Positions 7,931-53,539 of a stretch of 64,000 nucleotides of DNA are shown in pieces. The position numbers were made by a program, and so were the translations under genes. The stretch is taken from positions 39,866-103,865 of the forward strand of contig JAJDCO010000125.1 in the NCBI GenBank assembly GCA_029260795.1. Direction: 5' to 3'. Every line of letters starts with the position of its first letter. Position 1 is the stretch's first letter. The DNA comes from Planctomycetota bacterium (lineage in GTDB: Bacteria > Planctomycetota > OFTM77). The notes beneath the pieces were generated by a model that was not told the origin of the DNA, ran no database searches, and was given only the letters and a program-made list of their open reading frames with translations.

Positions 7931-8155
7931 GGTCGATCCTCCAACATGCTCGTGGGTATTTGGGGAGAAGCCTGGAACGTCCGTCCTTGGGAATTCCAGG
8001 CGACGGGTTTCTCGGGGGAACCGCCTTCGGACCAAGATGGGTCGCTCGTTACCGACTCCAGACGGAGTCGGAACGACGTACGAAGGGAATCGGTTCCCGC
8101 ATTCGCTCGGCCGATGAACACACCGCGGTATCCACCGGCTGGGGCGGGGGGCGAG

Positions 8156-33514: not shown

Positions 33515-35386
33515 ATGGCGAGCATGGGTCGGATGACGAATGGGCCGCGAAGCAGTGTCTCACGCTTTGCAATCCTCTGGGTGATCGGCTTCGGGGTGGT
33601 CACCCTGACGCTGGGAGTGATGACCGCCTTCCGCGGCACGGAGTCACCGCTCGAGCGATGGCTCTGGGCGTGGGCGCCCCAGGTCGATTCCTGGGCCATG
33701 ACGGTGCTCGCTCTCGCTCTCGCCGTGCTCGGGGCCGTCCCTTCCATCTCGTCGGGCTGGGTGCGCCTGTTCGAGGCGCTCGATCGAGCACTCGATCGCC
33801 GAGGCTTGGCGGCGGCTCTCACCGTCGCCTGGTTGTTGATGGCCTGGCTCCTTCGGTCGATGAACACCGAGCTCGGCGATGCCGACATGCTCTTTCAGCA
33901 CTTGATTTACGACGCACACGTCTACGGCTTCAACACCTACCCCGACGAGTACCTCTCTCGAATCCTCGGCAGCCGGTTCTACCTCCTCGCCCACGAGTCG
34001 TTCGGTGTCTCTTTCGCCCATGCCTGGGCCGCGCTCAGCATCCTTTGGGGCCTCGCCTTCGTGTCGGCCGTTCGCCGCCTCGCCAGCACCTGGTTTCCAG
34101 GACGCTCGGCCGCTCGAGGCCTCACGCTCGGACTGTTCTTCTGCGCCGGTTTGACACAGCACTTCTTCGGCTACCTCGAGCTCTACGCCGGCGCGACCGT
34201 CTTGATCGTGCTCACGGCGATCGCCTTCTATCGCACCAGTGGAGGCCAGGCCAAGGTCTTGTTTCCCGCCATGCTGGTCGGCTTGACGATCGCCTGCAAC
34301 AGCTTCGCGACCTGCCTCCTACCGGCGCTGACCGTGCTCGCCTGGCTCTCGGCTCGCGCGGAGTGGCGGACACGAGTCGCTCGGGTCGCGCTCGCATTGG
34401 CGGTCGCGGCCTTGCCCCTGCTCCTGACGTGGGCCTGGCTGCAGCTGCAAGGCTACGACGTGCAGGACCACCACCTCACCAAGAGCCACGCCGTCCGCGG
34501 ACGATTCATCTTCTCCGTGACGCCCGACGATCCGCACTACCTCTACGGTCCCCTCGATCCGCGCCACTTTCTCGACATCGTGAACGCCCTCGTGCTCTCC
34601 GGAGTGCCCGGCTTGGGCGCCTTGATCGCCGCGCTCCTCCTCGGACGGCGGCGCCTCCCATGGCGCAGCCACGCGGCAGCCGTCTATGGCTTGGCCTCTG
34701 CGGGCTTGATCGGATTCATCTGCGTCGTCAATCCGGACCTAGGACCGGTCGCCGACTGGGACCTTCTCTCATTCGGTGGCTTGGGTGTGACCCTGGCGGG
34801 CGCGTTTCTCCTGCCATTCGCATTGCCGGACGACAATCAACTGCGGCGAGTCGGGGGTGCCCTCCTCGCGGTTGGACTGGGGATAACGGTTCCCTTCGTC
34901 CTTCAGAACGCGCACACGCTCGGACCCGACTACGAGCGAATCGACGAGGCACCCGAGCCCTGGATGAAGGAGCTGGGAACGCAGCTCGGCGCCCAGAGCG
35001 TCCACGAGGTCGCCCACCTCGGTCGAGCCGAAAGACGGCTCGGGCGCGGCTTTCGCATCCTGATGGACGAGGCGCCTGAGCTCGACATTCGGGACGACGA
35101 GCCGAGCGCCGCGCGGCGAATCGCCGAGCACTATCGAGATCGGCCACTCCCGGCAGCGGCAGGACCCGATCTCGAAGCCGCTCGAAAGAGCTACGAAGAG
35201 GCCTCGAGGCTGAATCCCGACAACGTCCAAACCCATCGCCGTCTGCTCGGCTTGCTCCAGCTGCTGAAGGCCGGACCCGCAGACGTTCGACCGCACCTCG
35301 AAGCCATCCTTCGGATCGAGCCTGACGCATCCGATCGCGCGATACTGGAAGCGACACTCTCGTCGCTTCCGGAGCGGGCTCGATGA
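33515..35386 (+). CDS. Polytopic membrane protein with C-terminal TPR-like domain (paralog A). Possibly a GT-C-type glycosyltransferase (DUF2723/TMEM260-like).
   Basis: More than 10 predicted TM helices. Acidic first-loop motif NTELGDADML. Conserved HVYG, ELYAG, TKSHA and NPDLGPVADWDLLSFG motifs are shared with 35383..37209. Confidence 0.4.
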   Translation: MASMGRMTNGPRSSVSRFAILWVIGFGVVTLTLGVMTAFRGTESPLERWLWAWAPQVDSWAMTVLALALAVLGAVPSISSGWVRLFEALDRALDRRGLAAALTVAWLLMAWLLRSMNTELGDADMLFQHLIYDAHVYGFNTYPDEYLSRILGSRFYLLAHESFGVSFAHAWAALSILWGLAFVSAVRRLASTWFPGRSAARGLTLGLFFCAGLTQHFFGYLELYAGATVLIVLTAIAFYRTSGGQAKVLFPAMLVGLTIACNSFATCLLPALTVLAWLSARAEWRTRVARVALALAVAALPLLLTWAWLQLQGYDVQDHHLTKSHAVRGRFIFSVTPDDPHYLYGPLDPRHFLDIVNALVLSGVPGLGALIAALLLGRRRLPWRSHAAAVYGLASAGLIGFICVVNPDLGPVADWDLLSFGGLGVTLAGAFLLPFALPDDNQLRRVGGALLAVGLGITVPFVLQNAHTLGPDYERIDEAPEPWMKELGTQLGAQSVHEVAHLGRAERRLGRGFRILMDEAPELDIRDDEPSAARRIAEHYRDRPLPAAAGPDLEAARKSYEEASRLNPDNVQTHRRLLGLLQLLKAGPADVRPHLEAILRIEPDASDRAILEATLSSLPERAR

Positions 35387-37209
35387 GCCGGGCCCCGACG
35401 CGGCTCATCCTCGGCTCGGGTCTCGTCGGCCTGCTGGCGCTCTTGGCCACGGCCCTGCTCGGAGAGCCCGCCTGGGTCGAGCGGGTGATGCCGACCTGGA
35501 AGTACCTTCAAGACCTCCCGGCATCCGCTCTGATCGTCATCGGGGGTGCGGCGGTCTTGCTCCTCACACCTCGCGGTCGCTCGAGTCTCTTCGCGATCAT
35601 CGACCGGATTGCCTCCTGTGAGCTTCGCCGACCCGGCGGCTGGTTGCTGGCGAGCCTTCTGCTGATGGCAGTGCTCTTCATCGGCCGCTCGCGCAACCTG
35701 GAGCTGGGCGACGCTTCGGTTCTGATCGAAGACGTCCCCTACGACGTCCACGTCTACGGGCAGAACGTCTGGCCGGACGAAGTGCTGGCTCGCCTCTCGC
35801 GATCGCTGTTCTACCGTCTCGTTCACTCGACGCTCGGTCTGGACGTCCTTCAAGCCTTCGCCCTGTCGAGCGCACTCTGGGGAGTCCTATATGCCGCGGT
35901 CTTGATCGGCATCGGCCGTACGCTGTTCCCGGATCGCCGAATCGCGCGAGTGCTGCCCTTGCTGCTCGGCTTCACCATCGCCAACGTCCAGCTCTTCTTC
36001 GGCTACATCGAGGTCTACAGCGGCGTGACGGTTTGCCTGCTGGCCTTCGCAGGACAAGCCTATCGTTTCCTCGCCGGTCAGACGTCGATCGCTTCGCCGG
36101 CCGCTTGCCTCGCACTCGGGATCGGCTTCTATGCACCCGCCGGTGCCGCTCTCCCCAGCCTCCTCGTTCTGTGCATGCTCGGTCCGATGTCGGCGAACCG
36201 AGGAGCCCTGCGGCGGATCGCGCTCGCACTGGCGATGGGCACGACCGTGCTCGGCATCGTCTTTCTCATCTACTTCGGCTTGCTCGATTACCCGGTCGGT
36301 CACGTCACGCGGAGCCACGCATTCGGCCGCTGGACCTTCTTGGTCGATCGCAACGACCCGGACTTCCGATACCGGACCTTCGACGGGGCTCATCTCCGGG
36401 ACCTGATGCTCTTGATGCTGCGTGTCTCGGGCCCCGTGCTCCTCCTGTGGATCACGAGCTGGTTCCCCCGGGCGGGGCGAGCACTCTGGCGAGAGCCGGC
36501 CAGCCGATTCGAGCTGACATTCGCGGCCGGTCTGCTGTCCTTTTGCTTCTTGGTCCATCCGGATCTGGGTCCGGTCCGGGACTGGGACCTGCTCTCTTTC
36601 GGGAGTCTCGGCTGGCTACTGCTCGGCAGTCGCTGGCTCGGTCGTGCGGTGACCGACGAGCGAGAGCTGGCACGTCTCGTGGCGCCGGCGATCTCGGTCG
36701 GATTGCTCCTGACGGGTAGCTTCGTCTTCTTCAATGCGACCCGCGACCTGGGCGATCCCGAGGCACTCCGAGACAAGGAGCGTTGGTGGATCCAGGAGTG
36801 GGGCGTCCGGGATCACCAAGCGACGACCATGCACGAGTTCTCCCATCTGGCGGCCGCTCAGCGGCAGGTGCAGCTCGCCTTCGAAGCGATGGCACACGCT
36901 CGAGACGACACGCGCCTCGTCGACCTCGCGTCCGCGGACGAGCGAGCTCGTTTGATGACCCTCTATCGAAGCGAGGCACTGCCGAGCGAGGCGGAGGTCC
37001 CTCTCCAAAGAGCTTCGGACGAGTACCGCGAAGCGACCCGACTGGGGCCGGACAACCTGCGCAGCTGGTATCGATGGCTCGATGTGCTGCGATTGATTCG
37101 CGCACCGGCTCCACAGCTCCGCGCAGCCTACGATGCCCTTCTCGCCCGGGAACCGGATCCGGCTCGACGCGACCAGCTGGAGCGCCAGCGAGCGGCACTC
37201 GATCGGTAG
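35383..37209 (+). CDS. Polytopic membrane protein with C-terminal TPR-like domain (paralog B). Tandem duplicate with ATGA overlap.
   Basis: NLELGDASVL, HVYG, EVYSG, TRSHA, HPDLGPVRDWDLLSFG. Same architecture as paralog A. Confidence 0.4.
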   Translation: MSRAPTRLILGSGLVGLLALLATALLGEPAWVERVMPTWKYLQDLPASALIVIGGAAVLLLTPRGRSSLFAIIDRIASCELRRPGGWLLASLLLMAVLFIGRSRNLELGDASVLIEDVPYDVHVYGQNVWPDEVLARLSRSLFYRLVHSTLGLDVLQAFALSSALWGVLYAAVLIGIGRTLFPDRRIARVLPLLLGFTIANVQLFFGYIEVYSGVTVCLLAFAGQAYRFLAGQTSIASPAACLALGIGFYAPAGAALPSLLVLCMLGPMSANRGALRRIALALAMGTTVLGIVFLIYFGLLDYPVGHVTRSHAFGRWTFLVDRNDPDFRYRTFDGAHLRDLMLLMLRVSGPVLLLWITSWFPRAGRALWREPASRFELTFAAGLLSFCFLVHPDLGPVRDWDLLSFGSLGWLLLGSRWLGRAVTDERELARLVAPAISVGLLLTGSFVFFNATRDLGDPEALRDKERWWIQEWGVRDHQATTMHEFSHLAAAQRQVQLAFEAMAHARDDTRLVDLASADERARLMTLYRSEALPSEAEVPLQRASDEYREATRLGPDNLRSWYRWLDVLRLIRAPAPQLRAAYDALLAREPDPARRDQLERQRAALDR

Positions 37210-37320: not shown

Positions 37321-37875
37321 GTGAGAAGGGCTATGGCGGACCCCCTTCAGTACCGCGAGCTGTCCAACCCTCGCCTCGAAGAGCTGTGGAAGCGCGAGGG
37401 GGACGAGCGGGCGCGGGACATCTTGTTGACCCGGCGTTGGCGACGCGGCAATTTGGCCGCCGCCCGGGAGCTGCTTCGCCACTACGAACCGCTCTTTGAA
37501 GCAGAGTGTGATCGGGTCGGACTTCATGAAGAGGCCGAGCGGCATTCGTTCCACGAGGAGCTTCAGCTCAACCTGCTGATGGCTCTTCGACGCGGCGACC
37601 TTCCCAACTGGTTCGCCAGCCACTTCCGGTCCCTGCTCTTTCGCCTGCTGTCCGAGCGAGGGGCGTCCGCTCCTGCCGGAACCCGACTCCCCTTCGAAGA
37701 CGCTCTCGCCACCCTCGCTCCTGAGGAGCGCGAGATCCTCCGCGAGCGAGTCCTCGGAGGCCGCACGGCCCGCGAGCTCGCTCGAAACCGCCACGTCACC
37801 GTCGAGGCCGTTGCCGATGCTCTGGAACGCGCAACGACTCAGCTCTTGACCCGGGGTGACTCCGATGAGTGCTGA
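37321..37875 (+). CDS. ECF-type sigma-70 family sigma factor
   Basis: Region 4 helix-turn-helix LAPEEREILRERVLGGRTARELARNRHVTVEAVADALERATTQL. Overlaps the following anti-sigma gene by 20 bp. Confidence 0.65.
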   Translation: MRRAMADPLQYRELSNPRLEELWKREGDERARDILLTRRWRRGNLAAARELLRHYEPLFEAECDRVGLHEEAERHSFHEELQLNLLMALRRGDLPNWFASHFRSLLFRLLSERGASAPAGTRLPFEDALATLAPEEREILRERVLGGRTARELARNRHVTVEAVADALERATTQLLTRGDSDEC

Positions 37876-38755
37876 GCTCACGACCGACGACCATCCCGAT
37901 CTCGGGCTACTCTACCGATTCATCGATGGGGACCTTCTCGACGTCGAGACGGCCGAGCTCGAGGCTCACCTGCAGGAATGCTCGACCTGCCGGGAGAGCT
38001 ATCGACGCCTCCTCACTCGCGAGCACTCCATCACCGACCTCCTCCTCGACGCGGCTCGAGCCGAGCGAAACCAATCTCGCGTCCAGGGCGGATCGCCGTC
38101 TCCCGGTAAGACCGCCTATCCGATGATGCCGGTGACCGTCCCGACCACTGAACCGACAGTCTCGTCAGTGCCCCAGCGCCATCGACATCTCGGCATCATC
38201 GCTGCTGCCATCGTGGTCGTGTCGCTGTGGGGATACTTGCTCTCGCGCTGGCTCGGCGGCCCGCCGCCGGATGCGATCTTCAATGAGCTCCGATTGACGA
38301 CTCGAGTCACGGGGGTTCCCGAGGACCTCTCGGTCCAGAAGAACACCGATGTCGTCTCCGTCGACTACGAGTTCGAATTCTTCGTCCAGCTCTCCCTGAT
38401 CGAGGCAGGACAAGTCGCGGTCTACCACCGCCGCGCCGCCGGGGACGTCGCCCTGATCGTGCCCGCTCCTGACGCCGAAGCACCGACCTTGGAGCCCGGC
38501 GTCTCGTGGCGCCTACCGGCTGCTGACATCGGCCTGCTCGACTCTCAGCTCGGAGGCCGCGGCACGGTCATCGTGATTCCATTTCGACGCGCCCCCGCAC
38601 GGGAGTCTCTCATCGACACGGCGCGATGGCTCGAGACGGCAGCTCGCGAGCAAGGCTCCGGCACCGGACGGCCGGATTGGCGACAGAGCTTGCTTCGGCG
38701 CTTTCCCAGCGCTCGCCTGCTGGGATACCGGGTCGAGGATCTCGATCGCCTGTAA
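37856..38755 (+). CDS. Zinc-binding (ZAS-type) anti-sigma factor with a single TM helix
   Basis: HLQECSTC (HxxxCxxC). TM segment LGIIAAAIVVVSLWGYLL. Periplasmic C-terminal domain. Confidence 0.6.
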   Translation: MTPMSAELTTDDHPDLGLLYRFIDGDLLDVETAELEAHLQECSTCRESYRRLLTREHSITDLLLDAARAERNQSRVQGGSPSPGKTAYPMMPVTVPTTEPTVSSVPQRHRHLGIIAAAIVVVSLWGYLLSRWLGGPPPDAIFNELRLTTRVTGVPEDLSVQKNTDVVSVDYEFEFFVQLSLIEAGQVAVYHRRAAGDVALIVPAPDAEAPTLEPGVSWRLPAADIGLLDSQLGGRGTVIVIPFRRAPARESLIDTARWLETAAREQGSGTGRPDWRQSLLRRFPSARLLGYRVEDLDRL

Positions 38756-38782
38756 TCTTGCCAGCACGCGGTACGCCCGTGC

Positions 38783-41700
38783 TCACGCTCCACCGGTCGA
38801 GATCAGCTCGGTCGATTTGCCGTCCCGCACCAATCGAGGGAGAGCCACTCCCGCTTGCCGTCGCAACGAAAGGTAGAGGTTCGAGAGCACGAATCGGAGC
38901 GCGGCGGTCCCGGCAGCGCTCTCTTGCCACGCGTCCGTTCCACCGTCGGAAGGGAGCTCGAGGACATCGGCGACGGCACCCAGCCCGGCGCTGGGATCTC
39001 CACACAGCCAGAGCGCATAGCGCGTCGCGGCCTCGTCGAGCCGGGCATAGAAAGCACGAACCTGCGCCGCGACTCGAACTTCATCGACCGTGCTCGACAA
39101 GGCGGCGAGGCTGCGGCGAACACCGGTCGGAAGGATTCGGCGAAGACGTTGCGACAAGGCCGTCACCCGATCGCTGCGGCGGCCTCCGACGCTCGCCTTA
39201 CGATCGATGTGCGCCAACGCGCGAAGGGCATCGGCTGCCCGATCGGGACCGATCCGCAGCAACGGACCGAATCCACCGAGCGGCCCCGCCAATGCTCGCG
39301 CCGCGTGGAAGATCGTCTCGGCGCTCGCCGTGCCGAGAACCAGGCGCTCCGAGGCACCGAAGATCCACGGCTCATCACAAAGCAGCCGTACCGATCGAGG
39401 TTCTTCCGAGAGTACGTGAAGCTGCACGCTACCCAGGCGGAAGGCCTGGGCGATCTCGTCGAGGCGTTTCAGCAGCGGCGAGTTGTCGCACTCGCGGACG
39501 ACTCGCTTCGGTATCGCTTCCGGGGGAAAGAGCTCGCCGAGCGTGGGGACGAGCTGAAGCAAGATCGCCGCCGCGCCGATCGCGGCATCCGGCTTGGGGT
39601 GGAGCGAGGCCGGGAATCGTCCCGTGCGAGCGAAGGGCGCTGCACTCCAGGGGCGCAGGCTGGCTCGGTAGCGCGTGCGCTCCCGAGGCGTCAGCAGCCC
39701 GAGCACGTCCCGGCAACCCTGTACCATCAGGACGCCTTCTTGATCGCCCTGACCTTGGAGCAAGGTCTCGAGCGCATTCAGGCATTCGGAGCGGGTCGGA
39801 TCGTCGTGCAGCAAGTTCCGGAACAGGCGCACGGCTTCACGAGATCCCGCATCGGTCCGACTGAGGACCGCGGCAAACTCGAGCGTCACCCGCGCATCCT
39901 CTTCGGAGTCCGCCAGCGCCTGACGGTAGATCTCCGCCGCCTCGTCGGGACGACTCAATCGCTCGGCGTACAGCCTCGCCAGCTCCAAGGAGAGGTCCAG
40001 TCGAAGTCGGCGCTTGGCGGGAGACAGATGGTCGAGATAGCTTCGCCACAGGTTGGCGAGACCTTCTTCGTCGCCCATCCCGCGGAGCGTCTTCGTGGCT
40101 TCCTCGAGGAGTGCCTCCGAGCTCGGATTCTCACCCGCGGCCTCCAACAACACCTCATAGGCTTGTTTGGGTCGGTGGCATCGGTCCCGGAGCAGGCGCG
40201 CTCGACGCAGCCGAACGGTCGTCCGCTGGCGGGGCGTGGTCGAGGACTCGACGAGCTCGGCCAGGACCTCGAGTGCCTCGTCCCATCGCTCTCGCGCTTC
40301 GAGTGCCGTGGCGAGACCGAGCCGAGCCGAGGTGCCCAGGCGCGGGTCGTCACGGACCTCACGGAAGTAGACTTCGGCATCCTCGGGACGATCGAGCCCC
40401 TTGAGGAGAACCTGGCCGAGAAGAAAGCGCGTCGTCCGAAGCTGCTCGTCACCTTGCGCGACGCTCAGCAAGCGACTCAGGTGATGCTCTGCATCTATCC
40501 AGCGGCCGTTTCGAACATAGAGGGATGCCAGGCTCTCGAGAAGATCGGCCGCATCGGGCTCCTTCTCGAGCGCCTCCCGATAGGCGCGCGCCGCCGCTTG
40601 CCAGTCGCCCTCCTGCTCGAAGAGCTCCGCACGACAGCGCTGGGCGGACAAGAGCCGCTCGACCTCCGATGGCCGACGCGCCAGCTGGCCGACCAAGCGA
40701 TCGAGATAAGGCAGGGCATCGGCCGAGTGAGCCCCTCGGCGATACAGACCTGCCACGGTCTCGAGCCCATCGATGTGCTCTGGGTGGTGCTCGAGAAGCT
40801 CGAGCCAGGTGAGCAGAGCCGTCTCCGGATGTCCTGTCTCTTCCTCGAGCTTGGCTCGGCGCGCCAAGAGGCGGACGAGATCCGAAGCGACGAGCTCGGA
40901 GCGCCGCTCGCAGAGCTCATGTCGCACGTCCTCGAGCTCACGCGCCCGATCCCGTGGGGTGCTCTTCGAGTCACTTCCCTCGGAGGGCTGCTCCGACGAC
41001 TCGGGACGAGCCGCGACCTGGGTCTCCTCGACCGCCCCGTTCTTGGGTCCCACCGCCAGCCGGTCGGTCTCGTCGGTCAGCCTTTGCAGAAGCGTCCGGG
41101 CCTCTGCACAGGCGGGGTCGTGCTTCCAGGCTTCGCGCAGTGCCTTCAATGCTTCGTCGCGCCGGTCGAGCTCGTCCGCGAGCAGGCGAGCACGGCGCGC
41201 GATCCAACGAGCCCGATCCGGACCCGCGGAGGTCTTCGCGATCCTCAATCGGAGCATCTCGGCGACCGGCTCCCACTCCTCACGGTCGGTTGCCAGCGCG
41301 ATCGAAGCGTCGAGCACGTCGACTGTCTGCGCACCGTCCGCCACCGCCTGCTGCAAGAGCTCCCACGCCTCGTCGCGCCGACTCAAGGGACCGAACAGCA
41401 CCAATCCCAGCTCGGCGCGCACGCCGGCGGCCTCCTTTGGATCATCGATCTGCTCGATCCGCCGCTCCAGTGTCGCGGCCAGCTCTTCCCAACGACGAGC
41501 GCGCCTCAGCAAATCAATCAAGGCGTCGAGCGCCGCCGTCCGGCCGGGCTCGAGCTCGAGCACACGATTCAGACAATGAGCCGCGCGATCGACGTCGTTC
41601 AGGCTAGACGACAGCTCTTCCGCCGAACGAAGAAGTCTCTCGACATCCACGGTCTCAGCGTCCGATTGCAACCGCTGCAAATCGGCGAGCTCCTCGCTGC

Positions 41701-44700
41701 ATCCGACTTGTGCGTACAGCCGCTCGAGATCTCCGACGAGCTCTTGGCGTTGGTCGGCCGGCAGGTCCTCATCGAGCACTCGGCGCAATACGCGCGCGGC
41801 CTCGATCGGCGACGAGAGATAGCGCTCGTGCACCGAGGCGATCTCACGTCCCAACGCGACTCGCTCCTCGGGCTCCAAGTCACTGAGGCGAGCCTCTTGT
41901 CGCTGGGTGAGCTCGGGCCAGTATCCCCAACGGCGATAGGCCAGCTCGAGTGAAGATGTCGCGCGACGAGATCCGAGGTCGGCAGCCCGCTCGAGCCAGG
42001 GAATGGCGTCGTGGGGCCGATGCAGGCGGTCTTGAAGCAGGCGAGCCAGGAGGAGCGCGTGGCCGGCCCGACGAGACTCGCCGTCATCATCGCGCACCAG
42101 ACCTTCGAGCACGGTCTCGGCTCGGTCGTCCAGCTCGTCTCGCAGACACGAGGCCGCCAGCTTGCGGCGGCCGACGAGGCAGTCGGGCCACTGGGCCAAC
42201 AGCCGCTCCAACATGTCGCGCGCGCGCTCACCACCCGGGCGGAGCGGGTTGAGCAGCAGCTCCTCGATCCGCTGGCGAATCTCTCCGCGCTCGGACTCGG
42301 GAAACCGCTCGAGCGCGGCCAGCAGCACTCCGAGCTGCTCCGTGCTTCGGCCCGCTCGCCCCAAGAGATCGGCAAGATCTTGGAGCGTCTCCCGTGAGTC
42401 GGGGTTCAGATCCCGGGCACAGCGCAGGCACTCGATCGCGTGACTGGGACGATCGAGATCCTCGCTCCAGAGCCGGGCCAGCTCTCGGTAGACCGTGAAC
42501 CGATCGCAAGCGGGATCGTCGGATTGGAGCCAATGCTCGAGCACGCGCACGAGATCGATTCGACGCGCGTGCTCGCGGTACAGCCGTGCTAGCGCGGTGA
42601 GGATGAGGTTCGAGCTCGGGTCGAGGTCGAGGGCGCGCTCATACGCCGAGATGGCCGCGGCCGCGTCTCCGAGGCGTTCCTCGAGAAGCCGCGCCCGCGA
42701 GACGATCACGTCGACCTCTTCGGCCCGACTGTGGGAAAGTGCTGTTCGCCTCTGGTCCAGAGTGGCGAGCTCGGTCCAACGCTCACAGCGCTCGTAGAGA
42801 TGTGCCAAGAGGTCGAGCCCATGACGATCGACAGGATCGAGGGCGCGCGCTTCCTCGAAGCATCGCAAGGCCTCTTCCGGTAGATCGAGGCGATCCGAGT
42901 AGATCTCGCCGAGGCTCAGCAGAATGGAATGCCGCTCCGCCGGGCGGAACGCTCGCGCGAGCTGAAGCTCGCGGACCTCGGCAGCAGCCGCCCAACGCGA
43001 CGCCTCGATCTGTGCGAACGCGTGGCGCTCGAGCAGGTCGGCGGCGAGGACCGTGCCGGCGGCAGCCTCGCGAAGCAGTCCGTTGGCGAGCTCCAGATCC
43101 CCGGACTCGAGGAGCAAGACCGAGAGTCGAGCTTTCCAGCGGGCACCGACCGACTCCGCTGGTTCACCTGCCAATCCCTCCTCGAGCAGTCGCCGTGCGT
43201 CGACGATCCGGTCGTGACGGTTGGCCAGCTCGATCGCTCGGTCTCGAATGTTCGCCCGATCAGGCTCCGACTCGAGGATCGACTCATAGACGCGGCCAGC
43301 CTCATTCCCACGCTTCAGACGCTCGAGCGCGCGCGCCCGAGCGAGGCGCCAGGTCGTTCGAAGCGGCGACGCTTCCTTCGGTTCATTCTCCGCCAGAAGC
43401 GTGACGAGCTCCTCCCATCGTTGTCCTTCTCGCAGGATCGCCGACAGGGATGTCATCGCGATCGGATCCGCGGGTTCCGTCTGCAGGCACTTGCGGAACC
43501 AGTGCTCCGCCAGCTCGCGCTGATCGCGGTTGCGTGAGAAGAGCTCGCCGAGCTCTCGCGCGTATCGCGCACTCCGCTCGGGATCCTCCTCGAGCTGGGC
43601 CAGGTGCGTGAGCCCCGCCGAGAGCCGCTTCCAATCTTCGATCCGTCGAGCGACTCGGACCAGCCCTCGGAGTGCGAACCGATCCTGGGGCAGGTCGGCG
43701 AGGATGTTCTGATAGGTGGAGGCGGCCGCGGCAGGATCGCGCAGCGGACCTTCGAAGAGCTGGGCTCGCTCCCCGAGGAGCTCGCGACGCGCGACCGGGT
43801 CCCGGGTCGCCTCGAGCTCGCGCTCCAAGGTCTGAGCACATTCCTTCCAGCGGACGGCTTGGCGATAGCCGCGGCGAAGCTCCCGAAGAATCGTGAGCTG
43901 GTCAGGCCATCGGTTGCGCGCCGCTTCGAGAAGCTGGAGTGCCGCCTCGGGGTCCCCGAGATGATCTCGGTGGATCTGGGCGAGCTCGAGCGCTGCGGCC
44001 GGGGAGCGCCTCGGGTCCTCTTCTCTTTCGAGGCGACGGCTGACGACGTCTGCCGCTCGCTCCCAGTCTCCGCTCGCTCGGTAGAGACGCTCCAAACCCT
44101 CGAGAATCTCGATGTCGCCTTCCCGCTCGGACCAGGCCTTCTCGAGATGCTCGATCGCGCGCTGGTTGTCGAGGAGCTCGCTCTCCCAGAGAATCGCCAT
44201 CTTCTGGTGAATCGCGGCGCGCGTGATCTCGTCGTCCGCTCGTGCGAGCTCGACCTCATAGAGCTCGAGGACACGAGGCCAATCGCGACGTTCGGCTTGC
44301 AGTCGGGCGAGCTGCTTGAGCGCTCGGGAGTCGTGAGGGGCCGCGTCCGTCAGGCAAGCGATTCCGTCTTCGGCCCGATTCAAGGGACCGAGAAGGAGCT
44401 CGCCCTTGCGACGCAGAAGCTCTGCTCGCGTCGAATCCTCCTCGACCTCGGAGAGGCGAGCTTCGAGAACGAGGAGGCTCGCGCTCGGGTCGCCCAGCTG
44501 CTCGGCCAGCTCTCCGATCTTCTCGAGCGCTTCCGAGTCCGACGGATCGCTCTTCAAGGCGAGCTGCCACATCGCCAGCGCCTCATCGGCTCGCTGCAGC
44601 GTCGTGAGAGCCTGCGCCAGACGCCGAACAGTCTTCGTACGGTGCTCCCCATTCGCCAGGCACTGGACGCCGTGCTCGAGGTGAGCGACGAGGTCTTCGA

Positions 44701-46723
44701 AACGCTCATCGTGCTCGAGGAGCTCGGCCAGGCCCTCGTGAGCCTCGGTATCGGTGGGCGCATGCTCGAGGATGCGTCGGAGACATTGCTCAGCACCCGC
44801 CCGGTCTTCATGGCGCACGAAGGCCTCAGCCGCTGCGCGCCATTCGTCGAGTGCCGCGGGATCGGACGGGTCGGGTTGACGCTCGGCAAGACCGACGAAG
44901 GCTTCGGCGACATGGTCCCACCGCTCCGCGCGCTCGGCGGATCGGCGCCAGCGATCCCATGTGCTGCGATCGCCGGGTCGCAGCTCGGTCAATCGCATCC
45001 AAGCCTCTTCTGCGATGATCGGGTCCCCGATCTCCTGCTCCGCGACCCGTGCCAGCTCCTCATAGAGAGGCTCGGGATCGGACGGCCCGGCCGCGAGCTG
45101 GATCCGAAGTGTGGTGAGGACGCCCGACCAATCGCCACCCTGCGCATCATGGCGACGCAGCCAGCTTCCGGTGGCGGAGTCGGTCGGATCGTTCTCGAGG
45201 GCCACGCGGTAGTCGCTGGCGGCAGCTTCCTCGTCCCCTTGCTCGGTCAGGATCTCGGCACGCTCGCGGAGCAACGCCGCCGCCTGTCGGGGCGCCGCTT
45301 CGGAGGCCGCTCTCTGCAGCATCTCCAGCCAGGGACTCCAATCGTCCCGGCTCTGGCAGAGACCTCGAAGGCGCTCTCGCGCAGACTCATCCGTCGGCTC
45401 GGCTGCCAGCCGGGCCATCAGGATGTCATCCTCGATCGAGGTGGCCGATTCGGTGCCTTCACCCCATTCACTCAGCGCTTCGAGAAGATCCAAAGCGGCT
45501 CTCTGATCGCCCTGCGCCGCCGCCTTCCGAGCGACCTCCTCCAGTGAGCTCCTGCGGGCGTGAGGAATCCACTCCTGAGCCAACCCGGCGATCGCGAGTG
45601 TGGCGAGGCTCGACCAGAGACCACGCTCCTGCATGCCGGCGGACACCCGCAACCAGGCCGTGTTCTGATCGTCGGAGGACTCGATCGCGTTTCGCAATCG
45701 CTCGAGGCCGACCTCCGCTTGATCGAGTCGGTCGATGAGCAGAAGGCCCAGCTTTCGGCTCAGATCGAATTGTCGCTCCGGAGAGCGCGCATAGACTTCG
45801 AGAAGCTCGCGGTAGCTCCGCTGCAGAGTGGAGTAGTCCTCTCGCGAAGCACCGCACGTCTCCAAGAGCTCGAGGGCGTCGGGAACCTGGGGATCGAGCT
45901 GCAGCGCTTGTCGAACGTCCGAGCGCGCACCGTCTGCGTTCTCGCCCTGCTCTCGCCGGCAGCGTGCTCGTCGAACGAGAAGCTCCGCTCGTCGGGCCGG
46001 AATATCTTCGGTCCGAATGCGCTCCGTGAGAAACGCCTCGAGGTCGGGCCATCGCTCTTCGGCGACCAGATCCGACTCGACCTTGCTTCGAACACCCGAC
46101 TCCAAAGGCGAGCCACTGGGGGTCGTGCGCGTGTTGCCGGCCGGCCCTCGCGACATGAGATCACGCAGCCGAGCAACGGCGGTCGCATCCGAAGACTTCA
46201 GGCACAACTTTTCGAGGAGCTCCGCATCCGAGGCCTCGGTCCCTCCCACTGCCAAGAGGTCGAACCCGATGGCGATCGCGCGATCCAGCTCGTTCAGGTG
46301 ATCACCATACAGCGAGACCAGCTCGCGTGCGGCCGGGACGGCCCGTCGAACACCCGCCTCTTCGACCTCGGTGGCGAGAAGATCCGCCAGGTCCGTCCAA
46401 CGCTCGTCCTCTCGGAAGAGATCCTTGAGCCCGGCGCGAGCCTCTTCGCAGGTCGATGGCTCCTCCAGGAGCGCGCGATACTGATCCTGGGCTCGATCGA
46501 GGCGGTGGAGCTTTGAGTGGAAGAGCTGGGCGAGCCGAAGTCGAATCGAGGCACGCTCCTTCGCGTCGCTCTCGAACAACAGACGCTTCTCGTACAGCTT
46601 GGCGAGCTGCGTCCAGTCCTTGCGGTGATGGAGCTCGTTCTCTCGATGGCGAAACGCGTTCGAGGCATCGCCGCGAGCCTCGGAGCGGCCATCTCGACCG
46701 GATCTCGTCATGTGTTGTTCCAC
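38783..46723 (-). CDS. Giant TPR-repeat protein (2646 aa) with a non-TPR C-terminal domain of ~330 aa
   Basis: One continuous ORF. TPR/Sel1-like heptad patterns (W..LA.LY......A...Y..AL) run throughout. There are two TPR super-blocks separated by an acidic linker near aa 1700. The C-terminal 330 aa (…LHPKPDAAIGAAAILLQLVPTLGELFPPEAIPKRVVRECDNSPLL…) are unrecognised. Confidence 0.7.
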   Translation of the reverse strand: MEQHMTRSGRDGRSEARGDASNAFRHRENELHHRKDWTQLAKLYEKRLLFESDAKERASIRLRLAQLFHSKLHRLDRAQDQYRALLEEPSTCEEARAGLKDLFREDERWTDLADLLATEVEEAGVRRAVPAARELVSLYGDHLNELDRAIAIGFDLLAVGGTEASDAELLEKLCLKSSDATAVARLRDLMSRGPAGNTRTTPSGSPLESGVRSKVESDLVAEERWPDLEAFLTERIRTEDIPARRAELLVRRARCRREQGENADGARSDVRQALQLDPQVPDALELLETCGASREDYSTLQRSYRELLEVYARSPERQFDLSRKLGLLLIDRLDQAEVGLERLRNAIESSDDQNTAWLRVSAGMQERGLWSSLATLAIAGLAQEWIPHARRSSLEEVARKAAAQGDQRAALDLLEALSEWGEGTESATSIEDDILMARLAAEPTDESARERLRGLCQSRDDWSPWLEMLQRAASEAAPRQAAALLRERAEILTEQGDEEAAASDYRVALENDPTDSATGSWLRRHDAQGGDWSGVLTTLRIQLAAGPSDPEPLYEELARVAEQEIGDPIIAEEAWMRLTELRPGDRSTWDRWRRSAERAERWDHVAEAFVGLAERQPDPSDPAALDEWRAAAEAFVRHEDRAGAEQCLRRILEHAPTDTEAHEGLAELLEHDERFEDLVAHLEHGVQCLANGEHRTKTVRRLAQALTTLQRADEALAMWQLALKSDPSDSEALEKIGELAEQLGDPSASLLVLEARLSEVEEDSTRAELLRRKGELLLGPLNRAEDGIACLTDAAPHDSRALKQLARLQAERRDWPRVLELYEVELARADDEITRAAIHQKMAILWESELLDNQRAIEHLEKAWSEREGDIEILEGLERLYRASGDWERAADVVSRRLEREEDPRRSPAAALELAQIHRDHLGDPEAALQLLEAARNRWPDQLTILRELRRGYRQAVRWKECAQTLERELEATRDPVARRELLGERAQLFEGPLRDPAAAASTYQNILADLPQDRFALRGLVRVARRIEDWKRLSAGLTHLAQLEEDPERSARYARELGELFSRNRDQRELAEHWFRKCLQTEPADPIAMTSLSAILREGQRWEELVTLLAENEPKEASPLRTTWRLARARALERLKRGNEAGRVYESILESEPDRANIRDRAIELANRHDRIVDARRLLEEGLAGEPAESVGARWKARLSVLLLESGDLELANGLLREAAAGTVLAADLLERHAFAQIEASRWAAAAEVRELQLARAFRPAERHSILLSLGEIYSDRLDLPEEALRCFEEARALDPVDRHGLDLLAHLYERCERWTELATLDQRRTALSHSRAEEVDVIVSRARLLEERLGDAAAAISAYERALDLDPSSNLILTALARLYREHARRIDLVRVLEHWLQSDDPACDRFTVYRELARLWSEDLDRPSHAIECLRCARDLNPDSRETLQDLADLLGRAGRSTEQLGVLLAALERFPESERGEIRQRIEELLLNPLRPGGERARDMLERLLAQWPDCLVGRRKLAASCLRDELDDRAETVLEGLVRDDDGESRRAGHALLLARLLQDRLHRPHDAIPWLERAADLGSRRATSSLELAYRRWGYWPELTQRQEARLSDLEPEERVALGREIASVHERYLSSPIEAARVLRRVLDEDLPADQRQELVGDLERLYAQVGCSEELADLQRLQSDAETVDVERLLRSAEELSSSLNDVDRAAHCLNRVLELEPGRTAALDALIDLLRRARRWEELAATLERRIEQIDDPKEAAGVRAELGLVLFGPLSRRDEAWELLQQAVADGAQTVDVLDASIALATDREEWEPVAEMLRLRIAKTSAGPDRARWIARRARLLADELDRRDEALKALREAWKHDPACAEARTLLQRLTDETDRLAVGPKNGAVEETQVAARPESSEQPSEGSDSKSTPRDRARELEDVRHELCERRSELVASDLVRLLARRAKLEEETGHPETALLTWLELLEHHPEHIDGLETVAGLYRRGAHSADALPYLDRLVGQLARRPSEVERLLSAQRCRAELFEQEGDWQAAARAYREALEKEPDAADLLESLASLYVRNGRWIDAEHHLSRLLSVAQGDEQLRTTRFLLGQVLLKGLDRPEDAEVYFREVRDDPRLGTSARLGLATALEARERWDEALEVLAELVESSTTPRQRTTVRLRRARLLRDRCHRPKQAYEVLLEAAGENPSSEALLEEATKTLRGMGDEEGLANLWRSYLDHLSPAKRRLRLDLSLELARLYAERLSRPDEAAEIYRQALADSEEDARVTLEFAAVLSRTDAGSREAVRLFRNLLHDDPTRSECLNALETLLQGQGDQEGVLMVQGCRDVLGLLTPRERTRYRASLRPWSAAPFARTGRFPASLHPKPDAAIGAAAILLQLVPTLGELFPPEAIPKRVVRECDNSPLLKRLDEIAQAFRLGSVQLHVLSEEPRSVRLLCDEPWIFGASERLVLGTASAETIFHAARALAGPLGGFGPLLRIGPDRAADALRALAHIDRKASVGGRRSDRVTALSQRLRRILPTGVRRSLAALSSTVDEVRVAAQVRAFYARLDEAATRYALWLCGDPSAGLGAVADVLELPSDGGTDAWQESAAGTAALRFVLSNLYLSLRRQAGVALPRLVRDGKSTELISTGGA

Positions 46724-46876
46724 TCGGAATCAGAGCCAGAACGGGGAGCCAGCGGAGGAGGCTGGTCGAGTCTCCCGAAGGAGTTATCGGAACGCGAATC
46801 GTTCGAACCGAAGGAGTTTCGCGGCGAGTGGTTGCCCGGAGCTTCCCAGAAAGCCTTGACTCCCCGAGCGTTACGG

Positions 46877-46906
46877 TTTGACAGCCGGTCCTCGGGTCTG
46901 CTAGCG
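46877..46906 (+). promoter_or_regulatory. Sigma70-like promoter candidate for tgt (TTGACA, 18 nt, TAGCGT)
   Basis: Read from the sequence in the 246-bp divergent intergenic region. Confidence 0.25.
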
Positions 46907-46969
46907 TCCTGCCCCGGCCGCCCCCGGTGCGGCCGGACTCGCGGATCTCCACCGACGGGCCGACCACCG

Positions 46970-48097
46970 ATGACGACCCAGACTCCATCCCTGAGCTTCT
47001 CTCTGGAAGCCACCAATACCGGCTGCAGCGCCCGAGCGGGTCGCCTCCGAACGCCCCACGGTGAGACGCTGACGCCGGTGTTCATGCCGGTCGGCACCCA
47101 CGGGGCCTTGAAAGCGCTCACGCCCCGCCAGGTCGACGAGTCGGGCGCGACCATCGTCCTCGCCAACACCTACCATCTCGCCATCCGGCCGGGTGAAGCT
47201 CTGGTCGAGAAGAGCGGTGGCCTTCATGGCTTCATGCGCTGGCCGCACACGATCCTGACCGACAGCGGCGGCTTTCAGGTCTTCAGCCTCCCGGGAACGA
47301 AGATCGACGACGACGGCGTCAAGTTCCGGTACGAGAAAGGAGGGGAGGCCGTCACGCTGACACCCGAGCGCTCCATGGAGATCCAGATGACGCTCGGAGC
47401 GGACATCATCATGGCGTTCGACGAGTGCGTTCCCTTCCCCTGCGAGCGCTCCCGGGCCGAGCGCGCGATGCATCGGACGCTCGCCTGGGCCAAGCGTTGC
47501 CAGGCCCGACACGACAAGGCGGACCAAGCGCTCTTCGGCATCGTACAGGGCAGCACCTACGAGGACCTTCGACGACAGAGCGCTCGCGACCTGGTTCGCC
47601 TCGACTTTCCCGGCTATGCGATCGGTGGCGTGAGCGTCGGTGAGGGCCTCGAGCTGCTCAAGCAAGTCGTCTCGTGGGCGGCGCCCGAGCTGCCGGAGGA
47701 TCGTCCTCGCTATCTCATGGGAGTCGGCCTTCCCGAGGACATCCTCGAATCGATCGAGCGTGGGATCGACATGTTCGACTGCGTGATCCCCACTCGCTAT
47801 GCTCGCAGCGCGACACTCTTCACCTTCCGCGGCCGCATCCGCGTCACCAATCGCCGTTATCGTCGCGACCTCTTTCCGGTCGAGCCGAACTGCAGCTGTT
47901 ACACCTGCCGCGAGTTCACCCGCGCCTACCTCCACCATCTGTTCCAGTCGGGCGAGATCCTCGGCCAGATCCTCGCCTCGATCCACAACGTATCTTTTTA
48001 TCAGATGATAATGCAGCAGGCGCGAGAGGCGATCCTCGAGAACCGCTTCCCGGAGCACAAGGCCCGCTTCCTGGAGGAGCAGGCTCGCGGTCGTTGA
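46970..48097 (+). CDS. tgt: Queuine tRNA-ribosyltransferase
   Basis: DSGGFQ catalytic motif. Zn site CSCYTC...H. 375 aa from ATG 46970; the track ORF start at 46517 is an artefactual extension. Confidence 0.9.
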   Translation: MTTQTPSLSFSLEATNTGCSARAGRLRTPHGETLTPVFMPVGTHGALKALTPRQVDESGATIVLANTYHLAIRPGEALVEKSGGLHGFMRWPHTILTDSGGFQVFSLPGTKIDDDGVKFRYEKGGEAVTLTPERSMEIQMTLGADIIMAFDECVPFPCERSRAERAMHRTLAWAKRCQARHDKADQALFGIVQGSTYEDLRRQSARDLVRLDFPGYAIGGVSVGEGLELLKQVVSWAAPELPEDRPRYLMGVGLPEDILESIERGIDMFDCVIPTRYARSATLFTFRGRIRVTNRRYRRDLFPVEPNCSCYTCREFTRAYLHHLFQSGEILGQILASIHNVSFYQMIMQQAREAILENRFPEHKARFLEEQARGR

Positions 48098-48212: not shown

Positions 48213-49904
48213 TCACCGGTAGAAGTCGGTTCCCGTGATTCGGTTGTAGGCCCGTTGGGCGGCGGTTCGGAACGCCTCCTCGACTTCGGGATCGTCGGCC
48301 AGACGTTGAACCATCTCGAGCGAAGCTTGGTCGCGCACGTCTCCGAGGAATGAGATGGCCGCCGTCCTCAGCTCGACCGACTCGTCGGCATCGATGACGA
48401 GCTCCCGGAACAGCGGCGCGGCTTCCGGACGATTGGCGAACAGCAGCGCCTCGAGCGCGCCTTCGCGTATGGACTCCGGATGTCCATCGTCCCGATAGAG
48501 CTTCGTGAGGAAGTCGATCGCCGGACCGTCGCCGATGCGGGCGAGGCCGACTGCGGAGTTGATGCGCACTCCGATGTCCTCGTTCTCTGCCTCGAAGCGG
48601 CCGCGAAGGACAGAGCTCACGCTCTCGGCATCCAATGCCGAGAGACCCGCCGCTGCAATTCGTCGCACCATGTCACCCGCCTCGTCCGGGATCATGAGCG
48701 CCGCCTGGAGTGGCGGAATCACGGCCGGCGTCTCGAGGCGCCGGAGGATCAGCACCGCCAGCAGACGCTCCTCGGAGGGTGAGCCCGAAGAGATCACGTC
48801 CGCCAAGAGATCGATACCGCGCGGCCCGAGCTCACGAAAACGCGAGGACAGCTTCACGGCCTCCGCGATCAACGGATAGAGGAAGCCGGCTTCGGCGCTG
48901 GTCGTGAAGTCGTCCATCAAGGCGACCACAGTCGATTCGGGCACTGCCTGCCGTTCCACTTGAACGAGCAGTGCTCCGTTCTCCGCCAGCGCGTCGCGCA
49001 GCTGCTTTCGCGTCGAGAAGAGCTCTTGCTGCAACGTCGCTTCGAATCGGCGAAGCTGTCGGAGCTCGAGCTCGAGAGCCGCGATCCGTTCTTCGGCGTC
49101 GGACGGCTGGGCAGCCGGCCCACTCACTCGTCGCGGGCCGGCAGTCCCGACCAGACCTTCTTGACCGGACTCGATCACGACCTCTCGGCCGCCATGCATG
49201 AGGCGCGCCCGACCTTCGTGCACGGCCAGCTTCAAGCCGGCGTTTCCATGGCGCTCGAGTCTCGCCAACGTGCCCGGCTCCAGCTCAGCTTGGCCGAGAG
49301 GCGAATCCACTCTCAGAGCGGTCGGTGACAAGGAGGTCACAGTCAAAGTCCCCGACTCGAGTCGAAGGCGATCGATCGCCGTGGGCTCGACCCGAGCGCT
49401 CTCGTCGTTCGCGGCGAGCTCGAAAGCGATACCGTTCGACATCGAGGCCGCCAGTCGACCTCCGGGTGTGACTTCCAGCAGCTCTCCGGTACGAAGCTCA
49501 CTGCCGATTTGAATCACTTGACCGGCAGACCGGGCCTCTCCGCTCAGTGAGCGGATGACGCCCTCCATCGACTCGGGACCCCGGCTCGGCCAGAGGACGA
49601 CGGCGAGGAGCGTGGCGGCAGCGGCGGTGGCGAGATGCGTCCAAACTCCGGCACCGATGCGCGACGACTTGCGGCCGGCGGCTCGTTCCCGGCGGATGCG
49701 CCGGAGGACCTCGACCGAGAAGCTCGGATCGTCAATCGACGCCCCGGACTCCTGCAGGCGTCGCCCGATCGCTCGGGCGGCCTCGATCTCCTGGCGACAG
49801 AGCGCGCACACTCCGAGGTGAGCCTCGACGGCCAACCTCTGAGTCGCTTCGAGCTCGCGATCGAGGTAGAGCTCATGGAGCTCGAGCACGTCACGACATT
49901 CCAC
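48213..49904 (-). CDS. ZAS-type anti-sigma factor with TM helix and C-terminal HEAT/PBS-lyase-like repeats
   Basis: HLGVCALC (HxxxCxxC). TM segment THLATAAAATLLAVVLW. C-terminal repeats ...GDGPAIDFLTKLYRDDGHPESIREGALEAL.... Confidence 0.6.
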   Translation of the reverse strand: MECRDVLELHELYLDRELEATQRLAVEAHLGVCALCRQEIEAARAIGRRLQESGASIDDPSFSVEVLRRIRRERAAGRKSSRIGAGVWTHLATAAAATLLAVVLWPSRGPESMEGVIRSLSGEARSAGQVIQIGSELRTGELLEVTPGGRLAASMSNGIAFELAANDESARVEPTAIDRLRLESGTLTVTSLSPTALRVDSPLGQAELEPGTLARLERHGNAGLKLAVHEGRARLMHGGREVVIESGQEGLVGTAGPRRVSGPAAQPSDAEERIAALELELRQLRRFEATLQQELFSTRKQLRDALAENGALLVQVERQAVPESTVVALMDDFTTSAEAGFLYPLIAEAVKLSSRFRELGPRGIDLLADVISSGSPSEERLLAVLILRRLETPAVIPPLQAALMIPDEAGDMVRRIAAAGLSALDAESVSSVLRGRFEAENEDIGVRINSAVGLARIGDGPAIDFLTKLYRDDGHPESIREGALEALLFANRPEAAPLFRELVIDADESVELRTAAISFLGDVRDQASLEMVQRLADDPEVEEAFRTAAQRAYNRITGTDFYR

Positions 49905-49909
49905 CGCGG

Positions 49910-50500
49910 TTACCTCTTGATTGCGTAGTCTTTCAGATGGCGTTGCAGCAGCTTCTTTCCACGGTGGATGTTGATGCTCACGACGTTGGGCGTGACCCCG
50001 AGGATATCCGCGATGTCCTTACAGGCCAAGCCGTCGAAGTACCGCATCGCCAGGGCAGTGCGGTAGTTCTCCGGGAGCTTCGCCATCGCTTCCCACACGA
50101 CTCGTTTCGTCTCTTGGGTCTGGAGCGTCGGAGGAACTCCGGATTCTCCCCCACCGATTCGAGTCACCTCGACCGAACGATCGGTGACCCGACGCTCGAG
50201 CTTGAGGCGCTTGACCTTGTTGAAGGAGAGGTTCACCCCGATGCGGAACAGCCAGGAGGAGAACTTGTAGGTGGGATCGTAGAGGTGGATGGCCTTGAAC
50301 GCCCTGAGGAAGGTGTCCTGACAGATCTCCAACGTCAGATCATGGTTACGCAAGATCGAGTAGAGGATCGAGTAGAGGCGATCCTGGTACTTTACGACCA
50401 AGCGTCCGTAGGCCTCCGGGTCCCCGGTTCGGACTTCGGAAACGATCTGGACGTCTTCGGCTGCCGTCTCGCTGGGCTTTTGCTGGGCTGGCACGATCAT
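49910..50500 (-). CDS. ECF sigma factor
   Basis: Region 2 YSILRNHDLTLEICQDTFLRAFKAIHLYDP. Region 4 ALAMRYFDGLACKDIADILGVTPNVVSINIHRGKKLL. ATG at 50500. Confidence 0.75.
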   Translation of the reverse strand: MIVPAQQKPSETAAEDVQIVSEVRTGDPEAYGRLVVKYQDRLYSILYSILRNHDLTLEICQDTFLRAFKAIHLYDPTYKFSSWLFRIGVNLSFNKVKRLKLERRVTDRSVEVTRIGGGESGVPPTLQTQETKRVVWEAMAKLPENYRTALAMRYFDGLACKDIADILGVTPNVVSINIHRGKKLLQRHLKDYAIKR

Positions 50501-50737
50501 GGTCCTCGCGTTACAGGCGAGCGGACCCAGACTTTCAAGTCTCACCGGAATCAGCGACCGACTCGAGAGGGCCGAGCCTGCCGAAGCACCTGACGCCTGG
50601 TCACGGTCGCGAGAGAACCCCGCGGTTCCGGAAGCCAATAGTATAAGATGGCGGGCTTCCTCGGGGCCTTCGGGCTCTTGTAATAGGCGACGGCCTACAG
50701 CCCGACCCCGGCCTTATTCTCCAGGAAGACTCGTATC

Positions 50738-53320: not shown

Positions 53321-53366
53321 CGGCATTGTTCTCTCGGTGCCCTTCGGAGCACTTGCTGAAAGTCGA

Positions 53367-53395
53367 TTGACCCTCTCGCCCCCTCCGCGTATAAG
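53367..53395 (+). promoter_or_regulatory. Strong sigma70-like promoter candidate for rplC (TTGACC, 17 nt, TATAAG), giving a ~140-nt leader
   Basis: Near-consensus hexamers with optimal spacing. The leader contains the hairpin ACCGCTC-gag-GAGCGGT. Confidence 0.45.
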
Positions 53396-53539
53396 GGCGG
53401 GTCTTATCGTTCCGCATGGAGGCGGTCTTGCCCGTCTCCCGCTGCGCCTACCCGATGAATTCCCTTCACCGGCGCAAGCACGGATTGCCTTCCGACCGCT
53501 CGAGGAGCGGTGTCCTGATTCCGTCACGAAGGAACTCCC

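Follow-up and report, generated by a model that had tools for sequence, protein, structure and literature searches.

The question raised by this locus is what a giant gene made almost entirely of helical repeats may do in a planctomycete cell, and whether the sigma factor genes found on both of its sides belong with it. The gene lies on the minus strand of a 64,000-nucleotide stretch of contig JAJDCO010000125.1 of a Planctomycetota bacterium (this whole stretch is called the window in what follows). An initial annotation, made from the sequence and its open reading frames (ORFs), had described a giant tetratricopeptide repeat (TPR) protein with a C-terminal domain of no recognisable family, bracketed by two pairs of extracytoplasmic function (ECF) sigma and anti-sigma factors with which it could form a signalling or assembly system. 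The reading preferred here, to which a probability of a little over one half (about 0.55) is assigned, is that the protein is a cytoplasmic, two-block TPR solenoid of 297 kDa, acting as a multivalent scaffold and ending in a family-specific, probably non-catalytic docking domain, and that the ECF pairs are unrelated neighbours. What is new is the undescribed domain family at the end of this scaffold, whose known distribution is very narrow.

The minus-strand ORF at 38783..46723 is free of stop codons and comprises 2,646 codons when these are counted, in the ORF list and translation, from the first GTG, which was the length first proposed. The full-length ortholog described below begins at MTRS, corresponding to an internal MTRS of the window ORF, and a public collection holds an independent gene call with the same boundaries and an identical product of 2,642 aa. 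Since the N-terminus of the ortholog and this independent call agree, the true start is taken to be ATG 46711, and the gene accordingly spans 38783..46711 on the minus strand, with 2,642 aa and a stop codon; the single uninterrupted frame of about 7.9 kb was thus correctly seen, while its length had to be shortened. The product has a pI of 5.2 and is rich in Leu, Ala, Arg and Glu. With a GC content of 66%, and about the same GC content at the first and third codon positions on both strands, the gene also carries long ORFs on the opposite strand. Nevertheless, the minus strand can be regarded as the coding one, because eleven Pfam TPR-type families exceed their gathering scores on its product (TPR_14 with 97 bits, TPR_19 with 95, TPR_2 with 79 and TPR_1 with 63, among others) and because the sense frame is better conserved with respect to the ortholog locus, showing 57% identity as against 30-41% for the long antisense ORFs. 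The plus-strand ORFs at 38855-41953 (1,032 aa), 43604-45547 (647 aa) and 45560-46516 (318 aa) are, on this comparison, shadows of the giant gene.

As regards location, neither a signal peptide nor a membrane segment was found in the giant protein, the maximum KD19 value being 1.69, and the segment in which this maximum is reached is not hydrophobic in the second clade of related proteins. The N-terminus, MTRSGRDGRSEARGD..., is charged and lacks a hydrophobic segment. Given this charged N-terminus and the absence of any convincing hydrophobic stretch, the protein is apparently cytoplasmic. In both planctomycete genomes the gene is monocistronic, with a divergent gene, tgt, on one side and a convergent downstream gene on the other.

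The architecture of the repeat region was described with a hidden Markov model (HMM) trained on the protein's own repeats, which counts some 50 TPR-like units over aa 4-2306. The division into two super-blocks that had been suggested for the array was borne out. The first block (aa 1-1886; 41054..46711, minus strand) holds about 40 of the TPR-like units and is the fastest-evolving part of the protein, and the second (aa ~1923-2330; 39722..40945, minus strand) carries the strongest canonical TPRs, with the best Pfam stretches at aa 2027-2124, and is highly conserved. They are separated by a Ser/Glu/Pro-rich low-complexity linker (aa ~1887-1922; 40946..41053, minus strand), the sequence of which is not kept in the ortholog; the self-trained model leaves a coverage gap at aa 1868-1919. 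This linker lies some 200 residues away from the position near aa 1700 where one had been expected. Moreover, a nucleotide repeat search of the gene revealed no tandem duplication of TPR units, a possibility raised in the initial annotation, which argues for an array that is old and diverged. Measured in bins of 100 aa, identity to the ortholog amounts to 33-65% in the first 1,900 aa, reaches its maximum of 73-83% over aa 2001-2400 and then stays at 62-68% up to aa 2600. Because the conservation gradient peaks there, TPR block 2 and the C-terminal region can be considered the functional core of the protein.

The C-terminal domain itself covers about 310 aa (aa 2331-2642; 38786..39721, minus strand). 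Its proximal part contains conserved segments that resemble beta strands, while in its distal, helical part one finds the conserved motifs R-x-A-L...G-D, W-x-E and L-x-L-R-R. Over aa 2301-2600 the bins of 100 aa are 62-83% identical to the ortholog, which places the region among the best-conserved parts of the protein. The domain searches that had been recommended for it, against Pfam, NCBIfam, PADLOC and the sequences of the PDB, yielded no family: Pfam showed no match up to E<=10, NCBIfam and PADLOC returned nothing, and the comparison with PDB sequences, using single sequences as well as a profile, gave chance-level rows only (E>=0.004), the best of which were designed repeat or knot proteins. 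In addition, a word-indexed search of 5.8 billion clusters with the domain as query returned no homolog, and an exhaustive phmmer search against 1.84 billion representatives retrieved three proteins, named P0001, P0002 and P0003 here. The self-trained repeat model detects no significant TPR-like unit in aa 2307-2544; past aa 2306 it gives one unit-like match, at aa 2545-2574, together with a negligible 0.8 bits at aa 2489-2500. In consequence, the claim of a non-TPR domain of some 330 aa that could not be placed in any family holds as regards a discrete, conserved module without a known family, with the corrections that it is somewhat shorter and that its distal, helical half may be partly TPR-like. 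Among the residues that are invariant across the two clades described next there is no His and no Cys, the invariant polar ones being Asp, Glu, Arg and Ser. The lack of an invariant His or Cys argues against a metallo- or cysteine-enzyme, and as far as can be judged from the sequences the domain is probably non-catalytic.

Of the three proteins retrieved, P0001 (MEQ8766316.1, 2,639 aa, a hypothetical protein of a Planctomycetota metagenome-assembled genome) is a full-length ortholog, the sole one obtained from the search of 1.84 billion representatives, with 57% identity to the giant protein overall and 70% in the C-terminal domain. Similarly, a full-length alignment search of genome contigs found a single locus, L002 (JAVJTD010000349, from a Planctomycetota metagenome-assembled genome), which serves below as the ortholog locus. 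P0002 is a junk repeat translation, and P0003, a fragment of 236 aa, is 29% identical along an aligned length of 186 aa (36 bits, E 3.8e-4). When this fragment was used to seed profile searches, and one metagenome scan was added, a second clade emerged, comprising the proteins P0003-P0009 and the loci L001 and L003-L006; the scan contributed only three further loci, all of them from a single sample. The clade is metagenomic, and its loci have a GC content of 68-72%. In L004 an unbroken reading frame of up to 3,158 aa terminates in the C-terminal domain. The same holds for the genes on the nanopore contigs L001 and L003, which are frameshifted and would specify TPR proteins of roughly 3,300-3,600 aa, so that in every case, in both clades, the domain is terminal on a giant TPR protein. 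In the reverse direction, the profile of the domain built from the second clade matches the window protein and its ortholog at aa ~2500-2625 only, with 28-29 bits. In a MAFFT alignment, the whole C-terminal domain aligns across the clades with few gaps and in collinear fashion, and it is the only part of the giant protein to do so, since the TPR arrays can be aligned between the clades in a generic way, not collinearly. Taken together, the alignments make it probable that the terminal modules of the giant TPR proteins in these two distant lineages are homologous.

A further feature of the second clade is a small Cys-rich gene (~180-230 aa) with a lipobox-like N-terminus (…LAGC…), which overlaps the stop codon of the giant gene. 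It is present in all five loci in which the 3' end is available (L001:10954-11583, L004:9440-10129, L003:12980-13525, L005:~1253-1903 and L006:~843-1469), its copies being 35-91% identical among themselves, and it has no homolog in the window or in the ortholog locus. The small gene could be a conserved partner of the giant one in this clade.

The proposed way of working follows from this distribution of conserved and variable parts. The giant protein would be a long alpha-solenoid whose two blocks are connected by a flexible linker, offering a multivalent scaffold for protein-protein interactions. Its fast-evolving N-terminal TPR array would supply length and multiple peptide-binding grooves, while the conserved C-terminal ~650 aa, that is, TPR block 2 and the orphan domain, would act as the functional core, docking to a specific partner or driving self-assembly. 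The docking role is here deduced from the conservation and the position of the terminal module. Several points weigh against this scheme. The cross-clade homology rests on modest scores (28-36 bits), and the profile of the first clade does not retrieve the second. Both AlphaFold2 predictions were of low confidence: the window domain, modelled with 6 sequences, gave a predicted local distance difference test score (pLDDT) of 35.9, and the domain of P0005 from the second clade, modelled with 7 sequences, a pLDDT of 45.8 and a predicted template-modelling score of 0.40, both alignments being shallow and the models too poor for a fold assignment. Furthermore, the comparison of gene order relies on one genomic relative, the ortholog locus, and the neighbourhood gives no functional hint, tgt, truD and L3 being translation-related housekeeping genes.

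In this context, two other views of the C-terminal region have to be weighed. According to one of them, the last ~310 aa would be a degenerate capping continuation of the TPR or helical solenoid and not an independent domain, in line with the concern of the initial annotation that the C-terminus might merely consist of degenerate TPRs. The unit-like match at aa 2545-2574, in the distal half, is in its favour and makes a partly TPR-like helical cap possible. Nevertheless, this does not extend to the proximal half, since no match of the repeat model or of a Pfam TPR family was found in aa 2307-2488. Besides, the conserved segments VQLHVL, SVRLLC and WIFGA of the window protein, which correspond to LEVYLA, AVIEAT and TLVVGA in the second clade, resemble beta strands, and in the second AlphaFold2 model a helix precedes two short strands (LEVYLA and AVIEAT), which lie in its best-scoring part (pLDDT 57-65) and are followed by a helical bundle. 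The collinearity of the C-terminal region across the clades, which the TPR arrays do not share, also speaks against a mere extension of the array, and this view is held to be unlikely. The other view sees in the domain a catalytically dead zincin-like fold (of the M48/HtpX/BepA type), which would make the protein an inverted relative of the BepA-type TPR-peptidases. These peptidases likewise join a TPR region to a globular domain of about 250-300 aa; however, the domain order is reversed in the giant protein, BepA is periplasmic while the giant protein is read as cytoplasmic, and the latter has no HExxH motif. The one point offered for this fold is a layout in which a helix, three short beta-like segments and a long helix resemble the surroundings of the M48 HExxH helix, and the profile test of this likeness failed, as hhalign, run against E. 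coli HtpX, BepA, LoiP and YcaL as a profile, returned a probability of 0.09. Moreover, the sequence of the candidate helix is FHAARA in the window and SQRVA in the second clade, where no HExxH motif and no His invariant across the clades can be recognised, and Pfam gave no match at E<=10. The M48/zincin identity was rejected on these three grounds (the missing motif, the missing Pfam match and the hhalign result), and even an inactive relative appears scarcely credible.

Among characterised systems, the protein was also compared with long TPR arrays of other kinds. The best NCBIfam match of the array is PrsT (TIGR02917), the TPR lipoprotein of the PEP-CTERM/XrtA system, which is likewise a long array of TPR hairpins; however, the match reaches 141 bits against a cut-off of 312.2 and is limited to aa 701-1017, the giant protein has no lipoprotein signal, and no XrtA or PEP-CTERM protein was found among the window genes scanned with Pfam, a scan that covered most but not all ORFs. 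The match to LapB falls further short (73 bits against a cut-off of 363). The closest characterised analogue is GltI (AgmK, MXAN_4863) of Myxococcus xanthus, a cytoplasmic scaffold of 3,822 aa in the Agl-Glt gliding and focal-adhesion machinery (PMC11761067, PMC3169522), although membership of the GltI family is not claimed. Compared by description, both are giant cytoplasmic proteins without signal peptide or membrane segment, in which a TPR array is followed by a large C-terminal domain free of repeats.

That the giant protein could be a true, very distant homolog of GltI, scaffolding an envelope-spanning machine in planctomycetes, would agree with this gross architecture of a giant cytoplasmic TPR array and a large helical C-terminal domain (PMC11761067, PMC3169522), as well as with the second clade, of ~70% GC, where a conserved lipoprotein gene overlaps the stop codon of the giant gene. 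Nevertheless, GltI has been reported as restricted to Myxococcales (PMC3169522), the present protein belongs to Planctomycetota, and the exhaustive phmmer search with the C-terminal domain gave no myxobacterial protein at E<=1e-3. Nor were partner genes of the glt/agl type (the FHA/TonB-C protein GltG, the GYF protein GltJ or the MotA/TolQ-type AglRQS) seen among the scanned genes of the 64-kb window, in which FHA, GYF, TonB-C and MotA/TolQ-type genes are missing from the scanned ORFs. True homology to GltI is therefore regarded as very unlikely. A related and somewhat less improbable idea, still to be taken as doubtful, is that of a new scaffold family, present in Planctomycetota and in an uncultured high-GC lineage and equivalent to GltI, whose terminal domain would anchor a TPR ruler on the ~100-nm scale to an unrecognised envelope or cytoskeletal machine; as part of the same idea, the giant gene of the high-GC lineage would be translationally coupled to the small lipoprotein gene.

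As for the ECF genes, the pair on the 3' side of the giant gene (37321..38755, plus strand) consists of a sigma-like gene at 37321-37875 and a gene for a zf-HC2 transmembrane anti-sigma factor at 37856-38755, which overlap by 20 nt. The sigma-like product, of 184 aa, shows region 4 only, with 24.6 bits against a cut-off of 25.7, and 27.3 bits against a cut-off of 42.9 for TIGR02937; the convergent ECF/ZAS pair first reported here is therefore secure as regards its anti-sigma factor, while its sigma factor remains below the family thresholds. The second pair (48213..50500, minus strand) is formed by a zf-HC2/HEAT anti-sigma factor (48213-49904) and an ECF sigma factor (49910-50500, the start at about 50500 having been set by alignment with the ortholog locus). 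Here both regions of the sigma factor are above threshold (Sigma70_r2 with 50 bits, r4_2 with 51 bits and TIGR02937 with 79.7 against 42.9), so that this is a bona fide module with a class I (zf-HC2, ZAS-type) anti-sigma factor. It does lie 1.5 kb beyond the start of the giant gene, as had been noted, and the interval holds tgt, which had gone unmentioned. The second pair is not a paralog of the first, and the giant protein itself contains no sigma-related domain.

The stop codons of the first anti-sigma gene (38755) and of the giant gene (38783) converge at a distance of 27 nt (38756-38782), and no terminator-like hairpin was found between them; such a gap without a hairpin implies overlapping convergent transcripts. 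Upstream of the same pair, and in the same direction, stand two ORFs of ~600 aa, 33515-35386 and 35383-37209 (both on the plus strand), which overlap by 4 nt, have no match in Pfam, NCBIfam or PADLOC and are absent from the ortholog locus. They may be co-transcribed with the pair.

The gene between the giant gene and the second pair is tgt (46971..48097, plus strand), which encodes tRNA-guanine transglycosylase (Pfam TGT 508 bits, TIGR00430 499 bits). It is 83% identical to its copy at the ortholog locus, where it is also adjacent and divergent, an arrangement relative to the giant gene that is conserved for no other neighbour. The intergenic region between the two genes (46712..46970) measures 259 bp and contains three short blocks that are identical or nearly so in both genomes, namely GGCTGTCAA[AT]CCGTAA (with TTGACA on the tgt strand), CGCGAAAC[TC]CCTTCGGT and TTCCGATA. 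They are candidate promoter or operator elements.

The proposal that the giant protein and its two flanking pairs constitute one signalling or assembly system, for instance with the giant gene as an ECF target or its product as a modulator of the anti-sigma factor, can be weighed on this basis. Both pairs physically adjoin the giant gene in the window, the second pair is within about 5 kb of it at the ortholog locus, and the conserved motifs upstream of the giant gene include a GAAAC element that can be read as an ECF-type -35 box. However, the first pair is missing from the ortholog locus, with no tblastn match there or in the loci of the second clade; downstream of the giant gene, the ortholog locus has genes for a Sortilin/BNR protein, an MBL-rhodanese protein and a DUF1565 protein. 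That locus does keep the divergent unit of tgt and the giant gene, as well as a block made up of the HEAT-containing anti-sigma factor, the ECF sigma factor and the truD-like and L3-like genes; nevertheless, the unit is found on the opposite side of the block and in opposite orientation with respect to the window, so that L3, truD and tgt all separate the giant gene from the second pair there, as tgt does in the window. Around the giant genes of the second clade no homologs of sigma or anti-sigma factors were detected, the flanks covered reaching up to 10 kb either way in L001 and L003 and less far in the short contigs L004-L006. As regards a shared ECF-type promoter, both the giant gene and the ECF gene of the second pair are preceded by conserved blocks, and no convincing motif common to the two regions was identified. 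Finally, Planctomycetes have been described as a particularly ECF-rich phylum (PMC7826278), because of which some adjacency is to be expected by chance. Thus, the co-location, for which a check in related genomes had been advised, turned out not to be conserved, with the first pair absent, the second rearranged and neither kind of gene in the flanks covered in the second clade, which largely bears out the refuting condition that the initial annotation had set on gene order; a common system is considered highly improbable, and the association is best explained as a chance neighbourhood together with residual synteny between two related genomes.

The remaining genes of the window place the scaffold in an ordinary planctomycete chromosome, with sulfatase and FGE-sulfatase genes, hisS, tRNA-Val, a DEAD-box helicase, MoxR and DUF58. 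Divergent from the second ECF pair is a truD-like gene (50738-53320, plus strand), an ORF of 860 aa whose first ~260 aa match TruD and of which about 484 aa are conserved at the ortholog locus, the long tail behind them being non-conserved; three ORFs on the minus strand, 50714-51349, 51356-52249 and 52104-53417 (the last with a weak 'extensin-like' match), are probably its shadows. It is adjoined by a stand-alone gene resembling that of ribosomal protein L3 (53540-54196, plus strand, 218 aa), which matches part of the Pfam profile only, lies about 5.4 kb from tgt and is not in an S10-type operon; at the ortholog locus its immediate neighbours are the truD-like gene on one side and tgt on the other. 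The 64 kb contain five TPR genes: besides the giant gene, there are two fusions of GDSL-lipase and TPR at 2905-4461 and 54880-56622 (both on the plus strand and about 50 kb apart), a DUF3352-TPR protein at 5666-8035 and a TPR protein of 462 aa at 23536-24924. Neither the giant protein nor the four genes lying 3' of it matched any PADLOC model.

As to the meaning of these results, it is no surprise to find giant hypothetical TPR proteins that carry orphan domains in these phyla, and the genomic context revealed no mechanism. The analysis nonetheless removes the tempting and unsupported annotation of an ECF and giant-TPR system, leaving the housekeeping gene tgt as the sole conserved neighbour, and it delivers in the C-terminal domain a clean candidate for a new domain family, with fewer than 12 sequences in collections of about 15 billion proteins. 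To our knowledge, few of the proteins that organise the unusual cell plan of planctomycetes have been recognised. A cytoplasmic TPR ruler of this size, with a dedicated and conserved domain at its end, could plausibly organise a large assembly, and the finding would gain in significance if a link to a GltI-like machine in planctomycetes were established.

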